64,000 nt of DNA from Acidilobaceae archaeon (GCA_038824665.1 JAWBBK010000001.1:95358-159357), one strand, 5' to 3'. Shown: positions 12,163-60,947, counted from the first letter of the stretch. Notes: a model not told the origin generated them from the sequence alone. A program made the numbers and translations.

Positions 12163-12223
12163 AGCGAACGTCCTCTGAGAAGAAGAAAGGCAACTCCTAA
12201 ATTGCTTGAGGTGTGGTAGCGGG

Positions 12224-12300
12224 GGGTGGATTTGAACCACCGACCTCGGGGTTATGAGCCCCGCGGGCTACCAGGCTGCCCTACCCCGCTGTTTCGCCCC
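12224..12300 (-). tRNA. Initiator tRNA-Met (CAU), CCA encoded
   Basis: The minus strand reads AGCGGGG-UA-GGGC-AGCCUGGUA-GCCC-G-CGGGG-CUCAUAA-CCCCG-AGGUC-GGUGG-UUCAAAU-CCACC-CCCCGCU-A-CCA. It folds as a full cloverleaf, with an A1:U72 pair and G:C pairs closing the anticodon stem, as expected for an archaeal initiator. Confidence 0.9.
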
Positions 12301-47047: not shown

Positions 47048-47278
47048 ATGAAGCAAAAACAGAAGAAGCCAAAGGACCAGCTGTTCATTATTCTTATAAT
47101 GTTAAAGGTAGCTTTGACGCTGGTTTTAGCGGTTGCAGGAACTCTCCTAGCTGTACTCGGCAGTGAGGTAAGGTCCTCAGTTTTGATCGTAGTTGGCTTT
47201 ATCATCATCGCTTTTTCTCCTGTTCTATCATACGTGCTTATTCACATGATTTTGGTCAAGAGGCTTTATGGTTTGTGA
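47048..47278 (+). CDS. Small membrane protein (2 TM)
   Basis: 76-aa ORF with a Lys-rich N-terminus followed by two hydrophobic helices. Confidence 0.4.
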   Translation: MKQKQKKPKDQLFIILIMLKVALTLVLAVAGTLLAVLGSEVRSSVLIVVGFIIIAFSPVLSYVLIHMILVKRLYGL

Positions 47279-47292
47279 GGAGAGAATAGACG

Positions 47293-47349
47293 GGACGCGG
47301 GGAGCGCGGCTCCAAAGCCCCGCATCCTGGGCCGCTAGACGACCCGGCT
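47293..47349 (-). tRNA. Split tRNA-Gln(UUG), 5' half (positions 1-37) plus 3' trailer
   Basis: The minus strand from 47349 reads AGCCGGG-UC-GUCU-AGCGGCCCA-GGAU-G-CGGGG-CUUUGG, then the trailer A-GCCGC-GCU-CCCCGCGUCC. No T arm or 3' acceptor strand follows. The trailer is complementary to the leader at 52176-52192. Confidence 0.85.
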
Positions 47350-47375
47350 ACCGATTCTAGACCGCTTCTAGGACG

Positions 47376-47383
47376 CTTAAAAG
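47376..47383 (-). promoter_or_regulatory. TATA-like box upstream of the tRNA-Gln 5' half
   Basis: The minus strand reads CTTTTAAG, located 27-34 nt upstream of tRNA position 1. The region is shared with the divergent 47440 gene. Confidence 0.35.
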
Positions 47384-47439
47384 CTTGAAGTTTAAAAGAC
47401 GATCTAGAACACGAGAGCTGAAAAAGAGGTACATAGGTC

Positions 47440-48405
47440 TTGAAGAAAGTAGAGTTCGTGAGAAGAGTACAGCTTTTGGGTAAGTCTACCTATGCTGTGA
47501 CCCTACCTAAAGAATGGGCTAGACTTCACGGACTTACGAGAGGCTCAAAGGTATTTATGGAGGTCATGTCTGACGGGAGTCTGAGGATTAAGCTCGCTCC
47601 GTTATTGCATGAGTATAGAGCCAGCAGATACATAAAGTTCTCTTCGAACGAAGAAGCAGACCAGGTATTCTTTGAGGTCGCTTCTGCTCTAATATCGGGT
47701 TACGACTTTGTGATCGTATCATTCAATGAACTAACGTCTAGCTATATCAAAGCCTTTTGTGACAAACTGTCTCGTCTAGTTCCAGGACTTCAGGTCGAAC
47801 AGGAAGGTTTTGAGGTTAAGATCTCAACTTTAGGAGAGAGGAGTTCAAGAACTCTCGAAACACGTGTATCGTTAGTTGTAAAGCTCTTAGCTGAGGCTTT
47901 GAAGTCTCCAGACAAGCTGTCCTTAGCTGTGCTGGCTTTTAGTGACTTCAGGAAGACAGTAATAGAGTATGAGCTTCACAAAAGGTCTAGCCTTATATCA
48001 GGCGTTCATGAACTTCCGCTCGTGAGTCTACGTAGCCTCTCCGTTATTCTTCATCAAATCAAAGACTTGACAGTTGCGTATAGAACTCTCAGGCTTGTTG
48101 CCGAAAGTCCCAAAACAGAAAGAAAGGCTTTGGATTCGATAGAAGTGGTTGGAAGTCTGCTAGCAGATCTCTTTTGGTCAATAATAAAGGTCTTCAATAA
48201 CCCTTCTGAAGAAACGTACAGAGGAGTTCTGAGAGCGTACTCAAAATTGGTCAAAGAGATTGAGAAGTCGCGAGAGTTCTGTAGCGAAGAGATCAAAGCT
48301 CATCTCGAGAACATTCTCGTAGGTTTAGAGGATTTAATGCTAGAACTAGGAATTTATGTCTCAGTTTTAAAGATTGCGAGCGCTAGTTTTGAAGACACTT
48401 CTTAA
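47440..48405 (+). CDS. AbrB/SpoVT-domain DNA-binding protein with PhoU-like helical C-terminal domain
   Basis: The N-terminus VQLLGKSTYAVTLPKEWARLHGLTRGSKVFMEV is a swapped-hairpin AbrB-type motif, followed by a long helical region. TTG start. Confidence 0.6.
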   Translation: MKKVEFVRRVQLLGKSTYAVTLPKEWARLHGLTRGSKVFMEVMSDGSLRIKLAPLLHEYRASRYIKFSSNEEADQVFFEVASALISGYDFVIVSFNELTSSYIKAFCDKLSRLVPGLQVEQEGFEVKISTLGERSSRTLETRVSLVVKLLAEALKSPDKLSLAVLAFSDFRKTVIEYELHKRSSLISGVHELPLVSLRSLSVILHQIKDLTVAYRTLRLVAESPKTERKALDSIEVVGSLLADLFWSIIKVFNNPSEETYRGVLRAYSKLVKEIEKSREFCSEEIKAHLENILVGLEDLMLELGIYVSVLKIASASFEDTS

Positions 48406-48452
48406 TTTAATCACTTCTTAACTCAATGTTGGGGTCTTCAGACTAACGATTT

Positions 48453-49844
48453 TCAATGAAAATCTACCACCTTTATTATGTCGGAATTCTCTAACCTTTC
48501 CGCCTTCAAGTATCTATACGATACCTCTCTGAGGTCTTGGTTATTTCCATGGATCATTACGGTGTGGAGCCTTGCGTTCGCTTTAGAGAGAGCGCTTTTT
48601 ACGACGTTTACATTGATTTTATCCTCTCCATCTGAGATCAAAATGATATCGCTAACTCCTTTAGTTTCTCTACCTTTAACTATATCGTTGCAGGCGATAA
48701 GTACGGCTCTCATTATATCGGTACCGCCTCCGGCAGTTACTTTGGCCAAGCTGAGAAGAGCTCTGACCACCTCAGAGGCGTAAGGGTTGCTTTTCACTTT
48801 AGTCAGTTCGTAAGGAACGGAGTCAAAATATCTTGCGTAAAAAGCTCTAGACTCTCCAATAGCTCTTTTAAGTAGAGCTACAGCTACAGCTCGAGCCCAG
48901 TCTATCTTCTCTCCCACCATGCTTCCACTTTTATCTAACAGGACATAGATGGGACCTCTCGATACCTCTTCATGTTTTGAGTACAAAAGCAGTCTCGATT
49001 CAGCAAACGCGATCATAAAGTACGTTGAAGGTAACGCTAGTTGAGAGTAGTGCAGTCTCTCGAGGTCGCTACCTATTTCTATTCCTTCAGCCCAACCTTT
49101 CCTAAATCTGATTTTCTTTCCCTTAACGCCGGGGATGTCCAGACCTTCTATTCTCTCTAATATCTTAGCTATGTCCGTTAGTCTCGCTAATTTAAGCACC
49201 TCTTCTGCTGAATCTTCAAAGCTAAGAACGGATCCCGTACCGGCCAGTTTGGAGAGAAGTTCTGATTTAATCTTCTTGGCGGTTTCGGTATCTCTTAGAG
49301 CCTGGTCTAAAGCTTCGTTTAATACATCCTCCAGACTATCTAGAGCGTCTCCTTCTCCGTCGCTTTTCAAACCAGAGCGGTCTTTTGACGAATTTTTTTC
49401 GTCACTCTCATTTTCGCTTGAGTCTTTTCTTCCAAATCCTTTCTCGCTTAGAAAGTGAACGAGTTTATCAAGTATTGAGGCAGCGGCTACAGTACTGACT
49501 AGGCTGTCAGCAACAGTATAGACTCTTATACGGTGTAGTTTGGGATTTTTCAGCAATTGGGCAATTATGTTATATCTTTCTATATATTCATCATCATGTT
49601 CCTCATTCTCTTCACTTTCCTCTAACATTGGAATCGGTAGGTTAAGAACGTAAAAGAGGTCTGTAGCTAGCTCAGGTCTGAGGAGACCGCGTCCTTCAAT
49701 AGCGTTCTCTTTGGGTGAGAGATCTCCACGAAGAGTGTTCCTGAGTTCAATAACTGTACGAATTACTCTCTCTCCTCTATACATCTTCAGCTCGTCTAGA
49801 ACTCCTACACCCATTACAGTGCTTTTCTTAAACCTCAATGACAA
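48453..49844 (-). CDS. von Willebrand factor A (VWA) domain protein
   Basis: C-terminal VWA domain with the MIDAS motif LLDKSGSM and GGGTD, plus an acidic linker. Immediately downstream of the MoxR-like ATPase. Confidence 0.75.
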   Translation of the reverse strand: MSLRFKKSTVMGVGVLDELKMYRGERVIRTVIELRNTLRGDLSPKENAIEGRGLLRPELATDLFYVLNLPIPMLEESEENEEHDDEYIERYNIIAQLLKNPKLHRIRVYTVADSLVSTVAAASILDKLVHFLSEKGFGRKDSSENESDEKNSSKDRSGLKSDGEGDALDSLEDVLNEALDQALRDTETAKKIKSELLSKLAGTGSVLSFEDSAEEVLKLARLTDIAKILERIEGLDIPGVKGKKIRFRKGWAEGIEIGSDLERLHYSQLALPSTYFMIAFAESRLLLYSKHEEVSRGPIYVLLDKSGSMVGEKIDWARAVAVALLKRAIGESRAFYARYFDSVPYELTKVKSNPYASEVVRALLSLAKVTAGGGTDIMRAVLIACNDIVKGRETKGVSDIILISDGEDKINVNVVKSALSKANARLHTVMIHGNNQDLREVSYRYLKAERLENSDIIKVVDFH

Positions 49845-49848
49845 CCCC

Positions 49849-51084
49849 TTAGCTAAGTTTAGAGTTTATTACATCAAGCAATTCGTCTATGCTGTCTAAA
49901 ATCTCGGAGTAAATCCTTCTAACCTCTTCATCCTCTTCGAAGTCTTTAACTAAGCTTACGACTCTGTTCCTTGCACTTCTCAGACTTCTGCTATAGTCTA
50001 TGAGGCGAGGATCGAAGGGAGGTAGACTTCTGATCTTATTAGTAGCCAGCTTGACGTTAGCTTTGATCTCACTGAGTTCTCTTAAAACTCTATCCTTAGT
50101 CTTCAGTTCGTCCATGAGTATTACGGTTATCTTTTCGAAGTCTTCAATAGTTTTTGGCGCAACATATTTTATAACGATCAGGTCGTCAACAGAAGCGGAG
50201 ATCCTTCCATTGATTACTGCGTGAGCGGCTATGACCTTCATGAGCTTTCCCTTTCTTCTATCCGTTAGATGTATGCTCTTTGATTCCAAGGCTAAGAGTA
50301 ACTTGAGGATGTGATTTTTCACGTTCTCTAGATTTACTGAAAGCACAATCTTGTTGATGTTCTTTAAGTCCTCCATAGTCATGAGTGGTTTTGAGGTAGG
50401 TATGTCTCCACGCTCTATCTTCCAGCTGGCATCTAGAAGTCTAGACCAGAGTTCTTGGCTGAGAGGTTTTACATAAGTTCTTAATAAGAACCTATCGTAG
50501 AGCGCTTCTGTTTCAGGGTCTTCAGGCACTTTATTGGAGGCTCCAAAGAGACTCCAAAGCTTTGTCCTTATCTCCACATATCCATCGTATATTACACGTT
50601 CCATCATTAAACTCAACAAACAGTTCAGAACCGCGCTACTAGCGTTGAAGATCTCGTCGAGAAACGCTATCTCGGCTTCTGGTAGTTTGTCTTTAGTGAT
50701 TCTAACATAAGAACCTTTTAGTAAAGCGTTTACATCAAGAGGTCCGAAGAGTTCGCTGGGCTCAGTATATTTGGTTAACAGGTACTTGAAGAACTTAGCG
50801 TTAAGAAGGTCTGAAGCTCTTCTAACCAAAGCGCTCTTAGCAGTGCCTGGTTCTCCTATCAAGACAGCGTGCTCTCCTGTGAGAAGCGCTAGAGTTATTA
50901 GCAGTACCTCTTCCTGTCTTCCTACAAAGGGAGCTTCGAGTTCGTTCATAAACTTCCGAATTTTAGCCAAAGCCGAATCAAGAGAACGGCTCATACCTTC
51001 AGAGTTCTGTTCCTCCTTAAGATGAGTGGGTTTCAGAGAGCGCTCTAGACTTTTGTAGGTTTCTGGCTGAAAAACAGACACCAA
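49849..51084 (-). CDS. MoxR/RavA-like AAA+ ATPase
   Basis: Walker A GEPGTAKS and Walker B IAFLDEIF. The start may be the ATG at 50994 (MSRSLD) rather than the TTG at 51084. Confidence 0.8.
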   Translation of the reverse strand: MVSVFQPETYKSLERSLKPTHLKEEQNSEGMSRSLDSALAKIRKFMNELEAPFVGRQEEVLLITLALLTGEHAVLIGEPGTAKSALVRRASDLLNAKFFKYLLTKYTEPSELFGPLDVNALLKGSYVRITKDKLPEAEIAFLDEIFNASSAVLNCLLSLMMERVIYDGYVEIRTKLWSLFGASNKVPEDPETEALYDRFLLRTYVKPLSQELWSRLLDASWKIERGDIPTSKPLMTMEDLKNINKIVLSVNLENVKNHILKLLLALESKSIHLTDRRKGKLMKVIAAHAVINGRISASVDDLIVIKYVAPKTIEDFEKITVILMDELKTKDRVLRELSEIKANVKLATNKIRSLPPFDPRLIDYSRSLRSARNRVVSLVKDFEEDEEVRRIYSEILDSIDELLDVINSKLS

Positions 51085-51143
51085 CTCACCCCGAACTCTG
51101 CTGACTTAATTAAGGATAAACCCAAAGTAATTTAATTTAACTC

Positions 51144-52115
51144 TCAACTAGTCGTGGCGCGTTCTACAAAAGTCTCTACGATAAGAGCTGTCGTTAAAAG
51201 AAGCAGGGCCGACCTAGAGAAGTGTGCGTTCTCGCTTAGGATTTTCATGATTTCTTCGTTTCCTTCTTTTAAAGACTTAAGAATTCTTAGAGCATAGGGA
51301 ATAGGAAGGAGGGTCAGTAGAGCTACAAGTGGACTCACTATCTCTTTTATCGTAGATAGCAACAAGGACAACACAAAAATCATCAGTACGAGAAAGTAGC
51401 CTATCCACACCTTTTCTTTGAGGAGAATTGGAAGAGTCCTTCTTCCATACTTGATGTCAACTTTGACATCAGCTAAATGGTTTATATAAAGCGTGATTGT
51501 TGAGAGAGCCCCATATGTTGCTCCTAAAAAGATTGCTGATGTGTGGAGTTCCTTAGTAGCTACGTAGGCACAACCGAGAAACACTAGAACACTCCTCATA
51601 AAGGCTCCGAACTCTCCTAGTCCAAGTCTAAGCAGATAGGGATCATAGAGCAATATTATCAAGGCTCCAGCGATTACAAACAACAAGAGCACAAGACCGT
51701 AGAGAGCGCTAAGATATAGCCCTATAGAAAGGGCAACTATGAAGGTGAGTGTAGCTAAGACAAAGGCTTCAGTCAAAGAGATCTTCCCTTCAACTAAGAT
51801 CTTTGTCCCTCCGCTAAAAGGAGTCTTTAAAGTCTCTCTGTCTAGTCCGCTTTTATAGTCCTGTATTTCGTTGAGAGCGTTTACGCTGAGGTGAGCGAGC
51901 GTGACTCCAATAACGGCCAAGATTGATTCAAAAATAATACACTCTTCTGTTGTTTTACAACCATAGAAAATACCTCCTAAGCCTGCCAGTATAGTGCTAA
52001 GAGAGGTCTCAGGTCGCAAAAATCTCCAGTAAACACCGAACTTTTCTTTCCAGATCGGAATCTTCAGAAAAGATAGAACGATATTGTTTAAACTCTTCTT
52101 AATAAGTGATGTCAT
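51144..52115 (-). CDS. UbiA-family (MenA-like) aromatic prenyltransferase
   Basis: NEIQDYKSGLD (NxxxDxxxD-type) motif and about 9 TM helices. Confidence 0.75.
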   Translation of the reverse strand: MTSLIKKSLNNIVLSFLKIPIWKEKFGVYWRFLRPETSLSTILAGLGGIFYGCKTTEECIIFESILAVIGVTLAHLSVNALNEIQDYKSGLDRETLKTPFSGGTKILVEGKISLTEAFVLATLTFIVALSIGLYLSALYGLVLLLFVIAGALIILLYDPYLLRLGLGEFGAFMRSVLVFLGCAYVATKELHTSAIFLGATYGALSTITLYINHLADVKVDIKYGRRTLPILLKEKVWIGYFLVLMIFVLSLLLSTIKEIVSPLVALLTLLPIPYALRILKSLKEGNEEIMKILSENAHFSRSALLLLTTALIVETFVERATTS

Positions 52116-52145
52116 TTGAGTCCCTTAAAGAACAAATAGTTCAAG

Positions 52146-52153
52146 CTTTTTAG
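52146..52153 (+). promoter_or_regulatory. TATA-like box upstream of the tRNA-Gln 3' half
   Basis: CTTTTTAG lies 23-30 nt upstream of the first leader nucleotide (52176). It is in the 60-bp divergent spacer shared with the UbiA-family gene. Confidence 0.3.
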
Positions 52154-52171
52154 TTTGGAGATTTATACACT

Positions 52172-53068
52172 CTAAGGACGCGGGGTAGCGGCGGAGAGCC
52201 CCCGTGACCGGGGTTCGAATCCCCGCCCGGCTACCAATACTTTACAATAGCTTTCTTTCTCGAGATCACTCTCTCTAAGACCTCCACGAAAGTTTTTTGA
52301 CAGATCCTTTTTTCCTATTACTATAAAACGCGAAGGCTCAGGATATGTCCTTTCGAGAGCTTGTTCGATCACGTCTTCTCTAATGACCTCAACTAGCTGG
52401 TGTCTTGAAATTATGTGACCAAAACATATATCACTTTCCAACATGGCTTTTGTATATCTCTTCGGATAGTGAGGTCCTCCGAAAGCCGTTGCAGACATGC
52501 AGTTAGGAAGACCTTCTTCTAATTTGTTTACGACGTTGCTTACAGTAAGAGCCAGAGCGAGGATTGCTTTCATATCTCTCCATTGTTCCTCACAGCTACC
52601 TACCTCGATGAAGACTAGAGGCTTCTTTGATCCTGTGGGTCCGTGGTGAGTAGCTTCAAGAGTAACCTCATAAGTACTATCTAATTTGAGCTCTTGAGAA
52701 AGCTTGAAGTAGTAGAAAATAAGAGCTTTAGCTAGAGCAGGATAAGAAACGCCTAGTTCGAACGGCTTTCCCCCATTTGTTAGACTTGTAGGGTTTCCAA
52801 CGTGATGAACACTAAGCGTGCCTCTACACTCGCGAGAAGCGTGGCGAGAGAGCGCTATAAGAGGTCTTACTTCACTTCTAGGACTTACGTCAAGAATCTC
52901 TAAATCTAAGAGTTCTTGTTCGTAGCCGGCTATTAGTCCTCCCTCATAGCGATAACACTCTTTGGCTCCAGGACAGGTCGAAGGACTAGCTCTGAGATGT
53001 TCTACGAGCAGTTTTGAAGCTGAGACTCCTACAGGATCTTTTACCGAATATACTATGTCTATCTCCAT
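52172..53068 (-). CDS. dtdA: D-aminoacyl-tRNA deacylase, archaeal DTD2 type
   Basis: MEIDIVYSVKDPVG N-terminus and the LSRHASR, HHVGN and ATHHGPT motifs. The last ~21 codons are antisense to the tRNA-Gln 3' half. Confidence 0.7.
   Translation of the reverse strand: MEIDIVYSVKDPVGVSASKLLVEHLRASPSTCPGAKECYRYEGGLIAGYEQELLDLEILDVSPRSEVRPLIALSRHASRECRGTLSVHHVGNPTSLTNGGKPFELGVSYPALAKALIFYYFKLSQELKLDSTYEVTLEATHHGPTGSKKPLVFIEVGSCEEQWRDMKAILALALTVSNVVNKLEEGLPNCMSATAFGGPHYPKRYTKAMLESDICFGHIISRHQLVEVIREDVIEQALERTYPEPSRFIVIGKKDLSKNFRGGLRESDLEKESYCKVLVAGRGFEPRSRGLSAATPRP
52176..52236 (+). tRNA. Split tRNA-Gln(UUG), 5' leader plus 3' half (positions 38-76, CCA encoded)
   Basis: Leader GGACGCGGGG-UA-GCGGC-GGAG-AG, then C-CCCCG-UGAC-CGGGG-UUCGAAU-CCCCG-CCCGGCU-A-CCA. 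The acceptor 3' strand is the exact complement of AGCCGGG at 47343-47349. Confidence 0.85.
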
Positions 53069-60858: not shown

Positions 60859-60947
60859 GCCGGGGTGCCCGAGCGGACCAAGGGGACGGGCTGGAGACCC
60901 GTTGCCCCTTCGGGGGCGCGCGGGTTCGAATCCCGCCCCCGGCGCCA
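60859..60947 (+). tRNA. tRNA-Ser (GGA), CCA encoded
   Basis: GCCGGGG acceptor, anticodon arm ACGGG-CUGGAGA-CCCGU, long variable arm UGCCCCUUCGGGGGCG, T arm GCGGG-UUCGAAU-CCCGC, then CCCCGGC-G-CCA. Confidence 0.92.

Follow-up and report, generated by a model that had tools for sequence, protein, structure and literature searches.

Two halves of a tRNA-Gln(UUG) gene in the window

The 64-kb stretch of DNA analysed here (the window; coordinates are counted from its first letter, and its G+C content is 44%) comes from an Acidilobaceae archaeon and contains the two halves of a tRNA-Gln(UUG) gene, which lie on opposite strands 4.85 kb apart, are divergently transcribed and have four genes in between. 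The initial annotation had proposed that these halves form a split gene whose parts occupy separate loci, and every coordinate and sequence element it gave is present, exact to the base. The 5' exon (47349->47312, minus strand, 38 nt; AGCCGGG-UC-GUCU-AGCGGCCCA-GGAU-G-CGGGG-CUUUGG) covers tRNA positions 1-37 plus one supernumerary D-loop base, that is, the acceptor 5' strand, the D arm, the anticodon stem 5' strand and the loop C32-G37 with the anticodon UUG. It is followed by a 3' trailer of 19 nt (47311->47293, minus strand; A-GCCGC-GCU-CCCCGCGUCC). On the opposite strand, a 5' leader of 23 nt (52176-52198, plus strand; GGACGCGGGG-UA-GCGGC-GGAG-AG) precedes the 3' exon (52199-52236, plus strand, 38 nt; C38-CCCCG-UGAC-CGGGG-UUCGAAU-CCCCG-CCCGGCU-A-CCA), which covers positions 38-76 and includes C38, the anticodon stem 3' strand, a 4-nt variable loop, the T arm, the acceptor 3' strand, A73 and a genome-encoded CCA.

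Neither ARAGORN nor Rfam at its gathering threshold reported a tRNA at either half in the raw window, as had been expected of a split gene. The only calls were a tRNA-Met (12214-12290, minus strand) and a tRNA-Ser (60859-60947, plus strand), and a permissive Rfam threshold added weak partial matches to tmRNA and mascRNA on the T arm only. When the halves were joined, the resulting 76-mer was recognised by ARAGORN as tRNA-Gln(ttg) with a normal cloverleaf, with no nucleotide missing or duplicated and with the A1:U72 pair that had been pointed out. The joined 73-mer (without CCA) has the same sequence as the intact tRNA-Gln(UUG) genes of three other archaeal genomes (L067, L084 and L111), which score 56.6 bits on the Rfam tRNA family RF00005 (threshold 29); the 5' exon also matches the 5' part of these genes exactly, and the T arm and acceptor strand of the 3' exon are unchanged in at least 120 tRNA-Gln genes. 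For the window species and its sister lineage, tRNA-Gln(UUG) was sought in the 64-kb window and in 21-kb loci of metagenome-assembled genomes (MAGs), and the only such gene visible in the window is the one in two pieces. In the 28 longest open reading frames (ORFs) of the window, CAA accounts for 118 of the 228 Gln codons (52%). The codon is thus heavily used, and the UUG anticodon is needed.

Complementarity of the trailer and the leader had also been claimed, and they do form a GC-rich duplex of 15 bp, arranged in two helices (10 bp + 5 bp), at about -35 kcal/mol. The true leader was the trailer's best partner, barring the trailer's own antisense, among 42,648 30-nt segments taken from both strands (-35.2 kcal/mol vs a background of -8.2 +/- 3.9), and its comparison with shuffled leaders gave z = -3.6. 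Co-folding of the precursors gave back the acceptor stem and the junction together with the 10-bp CCCCGCGUCC:GGACGCGGGG and 5-bp GCCGC:GCGGC helices. When the bases are paired explicitly, the canonical helix-bulge-helix-bulge-helix geometry (hBHBh') of an archaeal bulge-helix-bulge (BHB) can be drawn at the junction 37/38. The central 4-bp helix C32-U35:GGAG is flanked by two 3-nt bulges, G36-G37-A and A-G-C38, and the outer helices H1 and H3 have 5 bp each. The initial A of the trailer completes the 5' bulge as its third base, and the remaining trailer pairs with the leader. The leader contributes one strand each to the 10-bp helix and to H3, provides GGAG as its 4-nt share of the central helix and, with its final AG, begins the 3' bulge. 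This canonical register places both cut sites at the exon ends, after G37 and before C38, where cutting had been proposed and where, given this geometry, it would be expected. The strict cloverleaf combined with hBHBh' is stable, with -65.9 kcal/mol at 37 C; at 80 C the value is still -17.3.

Promoter-like sequences are present upstream of both halves. A BRE/TATA-like element (B recognition element and TATA box) of 14 nt, TTCAAGCTTTTAAG, lies at 47376..47389 on the minus strand and ends 26 nt upstream of tRNA position 1, and a second one of 14 nt, TTCAAGCTTTTTAG, lies at 52140..52153 on the plus strand and ends 22 nt upstream of the first leader base. Both contain the 11-mer TTCAAGCTTTT, which occurs exactly twice in the window (vs 0.12 copies expected), once per half and correctly oriented in both cases, ending 29 nt upstream of tRNA position 1 and 25 nt upstream of the first leader base. 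This spacing fits an archaeal BRE/TATA promoter, so that each half appears to own a putative, independent promoter.

The stretch between the halves (47440..52115, about 4.7 kb) is occupied by four ordinary cellular genes, which serve here as context only: those for an AbrB/SpoVT-domain protein (47440-48405, plus strand), a VWA protein (48453-49844, minus strand), a MoxR-type AAA+ ATPase (49849-51084, minus strand) and a UbiA prenyltransferase (51144-52115, minus strand). No integrase, transposase or homing endonuclease was found between the window's halves. The gene for D-aminoacyl-tRNA deacylase (DtdA; 52172..53068, minus strand) is convergent with the 3' exon and overlaps it. In the authentic frame the overlap amounts to 6 nt: the final DtdA codons, TGG-TAG, are the antisense of the CUACCA end of the tRNA, and the encoded CCA doubles as the final Trp codon of DtdA. 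The protein has 277-278 residues and ends in ...(K/E)YW* in four MAGs of the same species and in the sister lineage. The ORF in the window has 298 residues because its frame is changed by one inserted nucleotide in the run CCTTTTTTCC, near 52314, and the frameshifted ORF runs antisense across the entire tRNA 3' half. Next to the 5' half, and convergent with it, lies a small membrane-like ORF of 76 residues (47048..47278, plus strand), whose stop codon is 15 nt from the trailer end.

Related lineages and interpretation of the locus

Six MAG assemblies (GCA_038832635.1 and five more, with contigs of up to 391 kb) encode a protein neighbouring the halves identically, and both halves are 100% identical in all of them; the halves being identical, no covariation is available from these six same-species loci. 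A DtdA 100% identical to that of the window bears the NCBI label 'Acidilobaceae archaeon'. The nearest relative with long contigs is a sister lineage, represented by loci L127 and L128 (GCA_038897215.1 and GCA_038888015.1), in which DtdA is 67% identical and the gene order NUDIX-DtdA-UbiA-MoxR-VWA-AbrB is as in the window. In L127, too, tRNA-Gln(UUG) is split, and the 3' half adjoins DtdA at the site known from the window. The 5' half is found on the other side, 8.1 kb away, between a MoCF-biosynthesis gene and a prenyltransferase gene; both L127 halves are on one strand, and about ten genes separate the upstream 3' half from the 5' half.

The exons of the window and of L127 are identical at 38/38 and 38/38 positions, whereas identity over the 100 nt on either side of each exon is 52-60%. 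By simple arithmetic, 76 unchanged positions at a neutral identity of ~60% have a probability of ~1e-17. Such conservation points to strong purifying selection on both halves since the window and L127 lineages diverged. In L127 the trailer AGCCGGCCCCGCGCCCCGC and the leader GCGGGGCGCGGGGCGGCAGGGAG, although related to those of the window, are not identical with them: the differences include a U-A to C-G double change, and the helix is longer. The pair folds into the same hBHBh'. Upstream of the L127 5' half there is a motif similar to that of the window, AACCTTTTAAG, at the same spacing, and the 3' half has TTAAGCTTTTAAACG at the equivalent spacing.

The outgroups L129/L130, L131 and L118, three lineages of Acidilobaceae that are more distant (DtdA 46-49% identical), carry an intact, intron-less tRNA-Gln(UUG) gene at the DtdA-adjacent site. 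Since the site is the same, the split gene is the ortholog of this intact gene, and since the split is shared by the window and L127 lineages, it predates their divergence. Intermediate DtdA lineages, at 74%, 56%, 50% and 49% identity, were represented only by short Logan contigs ending inside the tRNA 3' end, which gave no dating of the split. A metagenome scan for the clade-specific junction GGATGCGGGGCTTTGGAGCCG yielded no match. Five Logan contigs with DtdA homologues (L132-L136) all stop inside the T arm of tRNA-Gln. It is likely that a tRNA sequence common to co-occurring species breaks the assembly graph there, and such breaks would systematically conceal tRNA gene architecture in short-read assemblies.

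We consider it very probable that the two halves constitute a functional split, trans-spliced tRNA-Gln(UUG) gene of an uncultured hot-spring Acidilobaceae archaeon. As the halves lie on opposite strands, one common transcript is impossible; each half would be transcribed from its own BRE/TATA-type promoter. The two RNAs would then anneal via the 7-bp acceptor stem, the 5-bp anticodon stem and the 15-bp trailer:leader duplex, and C32-U35 together with the leader GGAG would form the hBHBh' substrate of the archaeal splicing endonuclease EndA. Cleavage by EndA followed by ligation by RtcB is the established archaeal pathway. In the case of our locus, the two cuts by EndA would fall behind G37 and in front of C38, ligation of the exons would be the task of RtcB, and RNase P and 3'-end trimming would finish a 76-nt tRNA with its genome-encoded CCA.

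Several points weigh against this interpretation. We infer the transcription, annealing, cleavage and ligation of the halves from their sequence, and EndA and RtcB are assumed in the host since, to our knowledge, they are universal in Archaea. An intact tRNA-Gln(UUG) gene could lie elsewhere in the genome, beyond the window and the 21-kb loci. No oligo-T terminator (at least 5 T) follows either half in the window, whereas several other split loci have one. Finally, the canonical BHB register is not the minimum free energy (MFE) structure, which has -77.7 kcal/mol at 37 C and -29.5 at 80 C. The MFE fold retains the acceptor stem, the 10-bp helix and H3, but its central helix is slipped by one register along the C38-C42 run. 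An equal slip was computed for the cis-intron tRNA-Gln genes of the relatives L068 and L093, whose introns end in GAGAG before C38. Because these genes must splice to function, we attribute the slip to the limits of the energy model, and it does not speak against the BHB.

It could be argued that the halves are non-functional debris of a gene broken by a genome rearrangement inside a former intron, and that the tRNA comes from an intact copy elsewhere. Their complementarity would then be no more than a remnant of the intron stem: an intron hairpin that breaks in its loop necessarily yields a trailer and a leader that are complementary. Moreover, strong oligo-T terminators are absent after the halves, and the tRNA-Gln(UUG) search covered the window and the 21-kb loci. 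Debris, however, would hardly keep 76/76 exon positions between lineages whose flanks are 52-60% and whose DtdA proteins are 67% identical. The trailer:leader helix has also been maintained through an extension and through one or more U-A to C-G double changes, the promoter-like elements upstream of both halves are retained in both lineages, and the split gene occupies the site of the outgroups' intact tRNA-Gln(UUG). We thus find this explanation unlikely. A different proposal, which would supplement the split-gene reading and does not contradict it, makes the 3' half a module with a second 5' partner, either in addition to the present one or in its place, e.g., a 5' half with a CUG anticodon. 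Halves with several partners are known (tRNA-Glu of Nanoarchaeum equitans, tRNA-Ala/Gly of Caldivirga maquilingensis), and the 3' parts of the UUG and CUG tRNA-Gln genes of related archaea are identical. On the other hand, neither the 64-kb window nor the 21-kb L127 locus has more than one 5' half and one trailer-like sequence, and the second isoacceptor in other MAGs is an ordinary intact or cis-intron gene, which makes the shared module improbable as well.

An artefact of assembly or binning, or the attL/attR remains of an element integrated in a tRNA gene, would be conceivable inasmuch as elements commonly integrate into tRNA genes, breaks at tRNAs are frequent in metagenome assemblies, and short Logan contigs do stop inside this very tRNA. 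Nevertheless, the same arrangement recurs in six independent assemblies (contigs to 391 kb) and in L127 (a 1.16-Mb contig), the halves abut exactly at 37/38 with no overlapping or duplicated tRNA segment, and the genes between them encode AbrB-domain, VWA, MoxR and UbiA proteins and no integrase, so that this origin seems barely credible. The attL/attR class was ruled out as the halves have no sequence in common and ordinary genes lie between them. Other gene classes were rejected by arrangement: the opposite strands of the exons rule out a cis-spliced intron gene and also, in the window, a circularly permuted gene of the Thermofilum pendens or Cyanidioschyzon type. In L127 the 3' half is upstream on the same strand, as in a permuted gene, but 8.1 kb off, with about ten genes in between.

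Origin of the split and tRNA-Gln genes of other archaea

The split most likely arose from the intact DtdA-adjacent gene in the common ancestor of the window and L127 lineages. The 3' half remained in place, locked by the 6 nt in which it overlaps the DtdA stop codon, while the 5' half was relocated. A homologue of the small ORF, 44% identical, is found at L127 2491-2706, adjoining the L127 5' half (2778-2741) and also convergent with it. A small ORF abutting the 5' half in both split lineages likely marks a rearrangement breakpoint. This 76-residue hydrophobic ORF is kept across Acidilobaceae, usually just downstream of the MoCF-biosynthesis gene, and in the outgroups it lies ~2.3 kb from the intact tRNA-Gln, past DtdA, NUDIX and MoCF. 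We hypothesize that one inversion, with the 37/38 site and the end of the small ORF as its two limits, would create the junction at which the small ORF and the 5' half face each other. This single-inversion model leaves the UbiA-side junction and the AbrB orientation unexplained; therefore, at least one further rearrangement is needed. Since the outgroup genes are intron-less, either a long-stem intron was gained first or the complementary segments arose otherwise. No cis-intron convincingly homologous to the window trailer/leader was found among the 120 loci listed in the survey described below, the best shared boundaries being of 4-7 nt only (L093, L054 and L024).

In this survey, the T arm and acceptor strand were scanned in one genome per species, which gave at least 120 loci; the window species was not among the matches listed. 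Intact genes made up 37 of the 120 matches listed, and 57 had a short cis-intron at 37/38, some with another one near 32/33. Gaps of 97-175 nt were present in 3, both halves lay on one strand 0.67-1.9 kb apart in 5, and ~11 were genuine orphan 3' halves, each with an AT-rich upstream region and a GC-rich leader. Among the matches listed, split tRNA-Gln was found in ~17 other Desulfurococcales/Acidilobaceae genomes. For the six pairs whose halves share a locus, cognate trailer/leader energies were from -36 to -56 kcal/mol vs -14 to -32 for non-cognate combinations; each cognate pair was the best in its row and column (6/6 split loci), and 5/6 folded the same bulge-helix-bulge junction. MAGs with two listed matches had the split gene and the other isoacceptor (L017/L019, L059/L083, L015/L123 and L107/L095). 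The survey suggests that split tRNA-Gln is much commoner in uncultured Desulfurococcales/Acidilobaceae than one would expect from the seven species described so far. Where the gene is split in this way, tRNA-Gln(UUG) will appear to be absent from a genome annotated by standard means.

The orphan 3' halves (L009/L038, L026, L031, L037, L058, L113, L122 and L126) come from uncultured Desulfurococcales and 'Sulfolobales' MAGs. Their GC-rich leaders end in GAGAG, GAGAA or GAGAU before C38, a TATA-like sequence lies ~25-30 nt upstream, and the partner 5' halves fall outside the 8-kb loci. A similar orphan 3' part is present in the cultured Ignicoccus pacificus DSM 13166 (CP006868.1 ~708,942; L053 position 4942), ~50 nt downstream of a tRNA-Arg(CCU) gene. 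Split genes were also seen for tRNA-Gln(CUG), at L098 2194-4215 (Acidilobaceae MAG M2_maxbin2.140) and L017 2270-3116 (an Ignisphaera MAG). The L098 halves are 1.9 kb apart on one strand, with antisense sugar-kinase-like and aldolase-like ORFs (names assigned by eye) between them, and those of L017 are 0.76 kb apart with no long ORF in between. The central helix of the CUG forms has AGAG as its leader strand, a perfect complement of CUCU, and this strand thus covaries with the anticodon.

Introns between positions 32 and 33 occur in the tRNA-Gln(UUG) genes of L010, L011, L027, L080 and L085, sometimes together with a 37/38 intron, and an orphan 3' fragment at L030 position 1578 begins at U33, i.e., it is of the 32/33 type, the split junction of N. 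equitans. In the tRNA-Gln genes of L023, L028, L039, L116 and L124 the anticodon loop reads GGGGC-CUUGG, with C33 replacing the near-universal U33. These genes belong to four Acidilobaceae-type MAGs (UBA158, UBA162, Acidilobus sp. and Candidatus Hestiella) and one Thermoproteota, and ARAGORN mis-calls the intron-containing ones as Pro or Leu.

In five loci from Desulfurococcales MAGs and JGI metagenome contigs, the gap between the tRNA-Gln(UUG) halves contains an antisense LAGLIDADG gene: L015 (4706-5287, minus strand), L109 (3217-3771, minus strand), L107 (2276-2826, plus strand in locus coordinates, frameshifted), L137 (1098-1628) and L142 (799-1380). The encoded endonuclease is of the double-motif LAGLIDADG type, with the Pfam families LAGLIDADG_3 and Hom_end above threshold. 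Gaps of this kind measure 0.67-0.75 kb, and the halves are on the same strand with junction 37/38 and a canonical hBHBh'. L138 (4681-4790) retains only a 37-residue endonuclease remnant in a gap of 271 nt, and L068 and L140 have mini-introns of 34-37 nt with the same AUAGCGG...CCGCUAGAAGA boundary stem. Judged by their sequences, the endonuclease-bearing, remnant and mini-intron loci look like a series of invasion, decay and loss. In the searchable literature we found no paper on archaeal tRNA BHB introns that contain a gene for a homing endonuclease.

Splitting may be driven by such a homing endonuclease gene when it lies between the halves. The intron-less tRNA-Gln DNA site reads GGGGCTTTGG before and CCCCCGTGA after the 37/38 junction. 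Tentatively, and with the odds rather against it, this site may be a recurrent breaking point in Desulfurococcales/Acidilobaceae, entered by a mobile BHB intron able to carry a LAGLIDADG gene, and the window locus may be a late, rearranged product. Invasion, double-strand breaks and decay would then have turned intact genes into intron-containing and split ones repeatedly. No endonuclease remnant was detected by tblastn in the window, in L001-L006 or in L127-L131, and an endonuclease origin of this particular split is therefore unsupported. The window trailer/leader also shows no visible relation to endonuclease-type trailers/leaders.

Split tRNA genes bear on the debate whether tRNAs originated from two half-molecules or became fragmented at a late stage. 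At the window locus the history is readable from intact intron-less outgroups, two split sister lineages, a pinned 3' half and a moved 5' half. These comparisons provide clear sequence-based evidence that the split is late and derived and is maintained by selection.

Comparison with known split tRNA genes

In the searchable literature, split tRNA genes are described in seven species only, and later papers add no further species. Split tRNA-Gln is known from N. equitans alone, with the junction at 32/33 (PMC3218864). We found in the searchable literature no description of a tRNA-Gln split at 37/38 or of any split tRNA in Acidilobaceae, so that the caution of the initial annotation about a prior description was reasonable. 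By its separate loci, its complete joined tRNA, its complementary trailer and leader and its junction geometry, the window gene itself qualifies at the sequence level as an archaeal split tRNA gene.

N. equitans, whose genome has a low G+C content (~32%), belongs to an unrelated lineage, and its tRNA-Gln split is therefore of independent origin; with 44% G+C, the window is not from Nanoarchaeum. Its tRNA-Gln(UUG) resembles the window gene in isoacceptor and anticodon, in the opposite strands of the halves and in the GC-rich complementary leader and trailer, but differs in its junction (32/33), in the distance between the halves (~63 kb) and in belonging to a reduced symbiont genome (Randau et al. 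2005; Table 1 of PMC3218864). The split tRNA-Lys(CUU) of Staphylothermus marinus and S. hellenicus has halves ~4.8 kb apart in one chromosomal neighbourhood of a free-living crenarchaeon; there, the junction is at 30/31, the halves are on the same strand and the tRNA is another one (PMC3218864). Caldivirga maquilingensis is also a free-living hot-spring crenarchaeon, and its leaders are similar in sequence to the introns that related species have (Fujishima et al. 2009; PMC4390854). It belongs, however, to Thermoproteales and has several split tRNAs, shared halves and three-piece genes, but no split tRNA-Gln (PMC4390854).

The cis BHB introns of related tRNA-Gln genes have the same insertion point (37/38) and the same central helix with C32-U35, and share with the window the 3' boundary ...GAGAG or ...GAGAA before C38; the enzymes are presumably shared. 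Their exons, however, lie on one strand, 10-60 nt apart, in one transcript, whereas the exons of the window are not co-transcribable.

The closest known design is the split tRNA-Asp of Thermosphaera aggregans. The tRNA-Asp(GUC) genes of T. aggregans and Aeropyrum pernix (Chan, Cozen & Lowe 2011, PMC3218864) are, like the window gene, crenarchaeal (Desulfurococcales sensu lato), with the junction at 37/38, a canonical hBHBh' and a GC-rich complementary leader/trailer; relatives with an uninterrupted gene argue for a late split in this case, too, and the T. aggregans halves are on opposite strands, as in the window. The tRNA-Asp(GUC) halves, though, are directly adjacent (~120-160 bp; PMC3218864), whereas those of the window are separated by 4.85 kb and four genes and those of the sister lineage by 8.1 kb. 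Moreover, the window tRNA is a tRNA-Gln, and its split is common to two diverged lineages with a relocated 5' half. The window gene represents a new lineage (Acidilobaceae) and a new combination of tRNA and junction (Gln at 37/38), and is apparently an undescribed case of a rare but known phenomenon.

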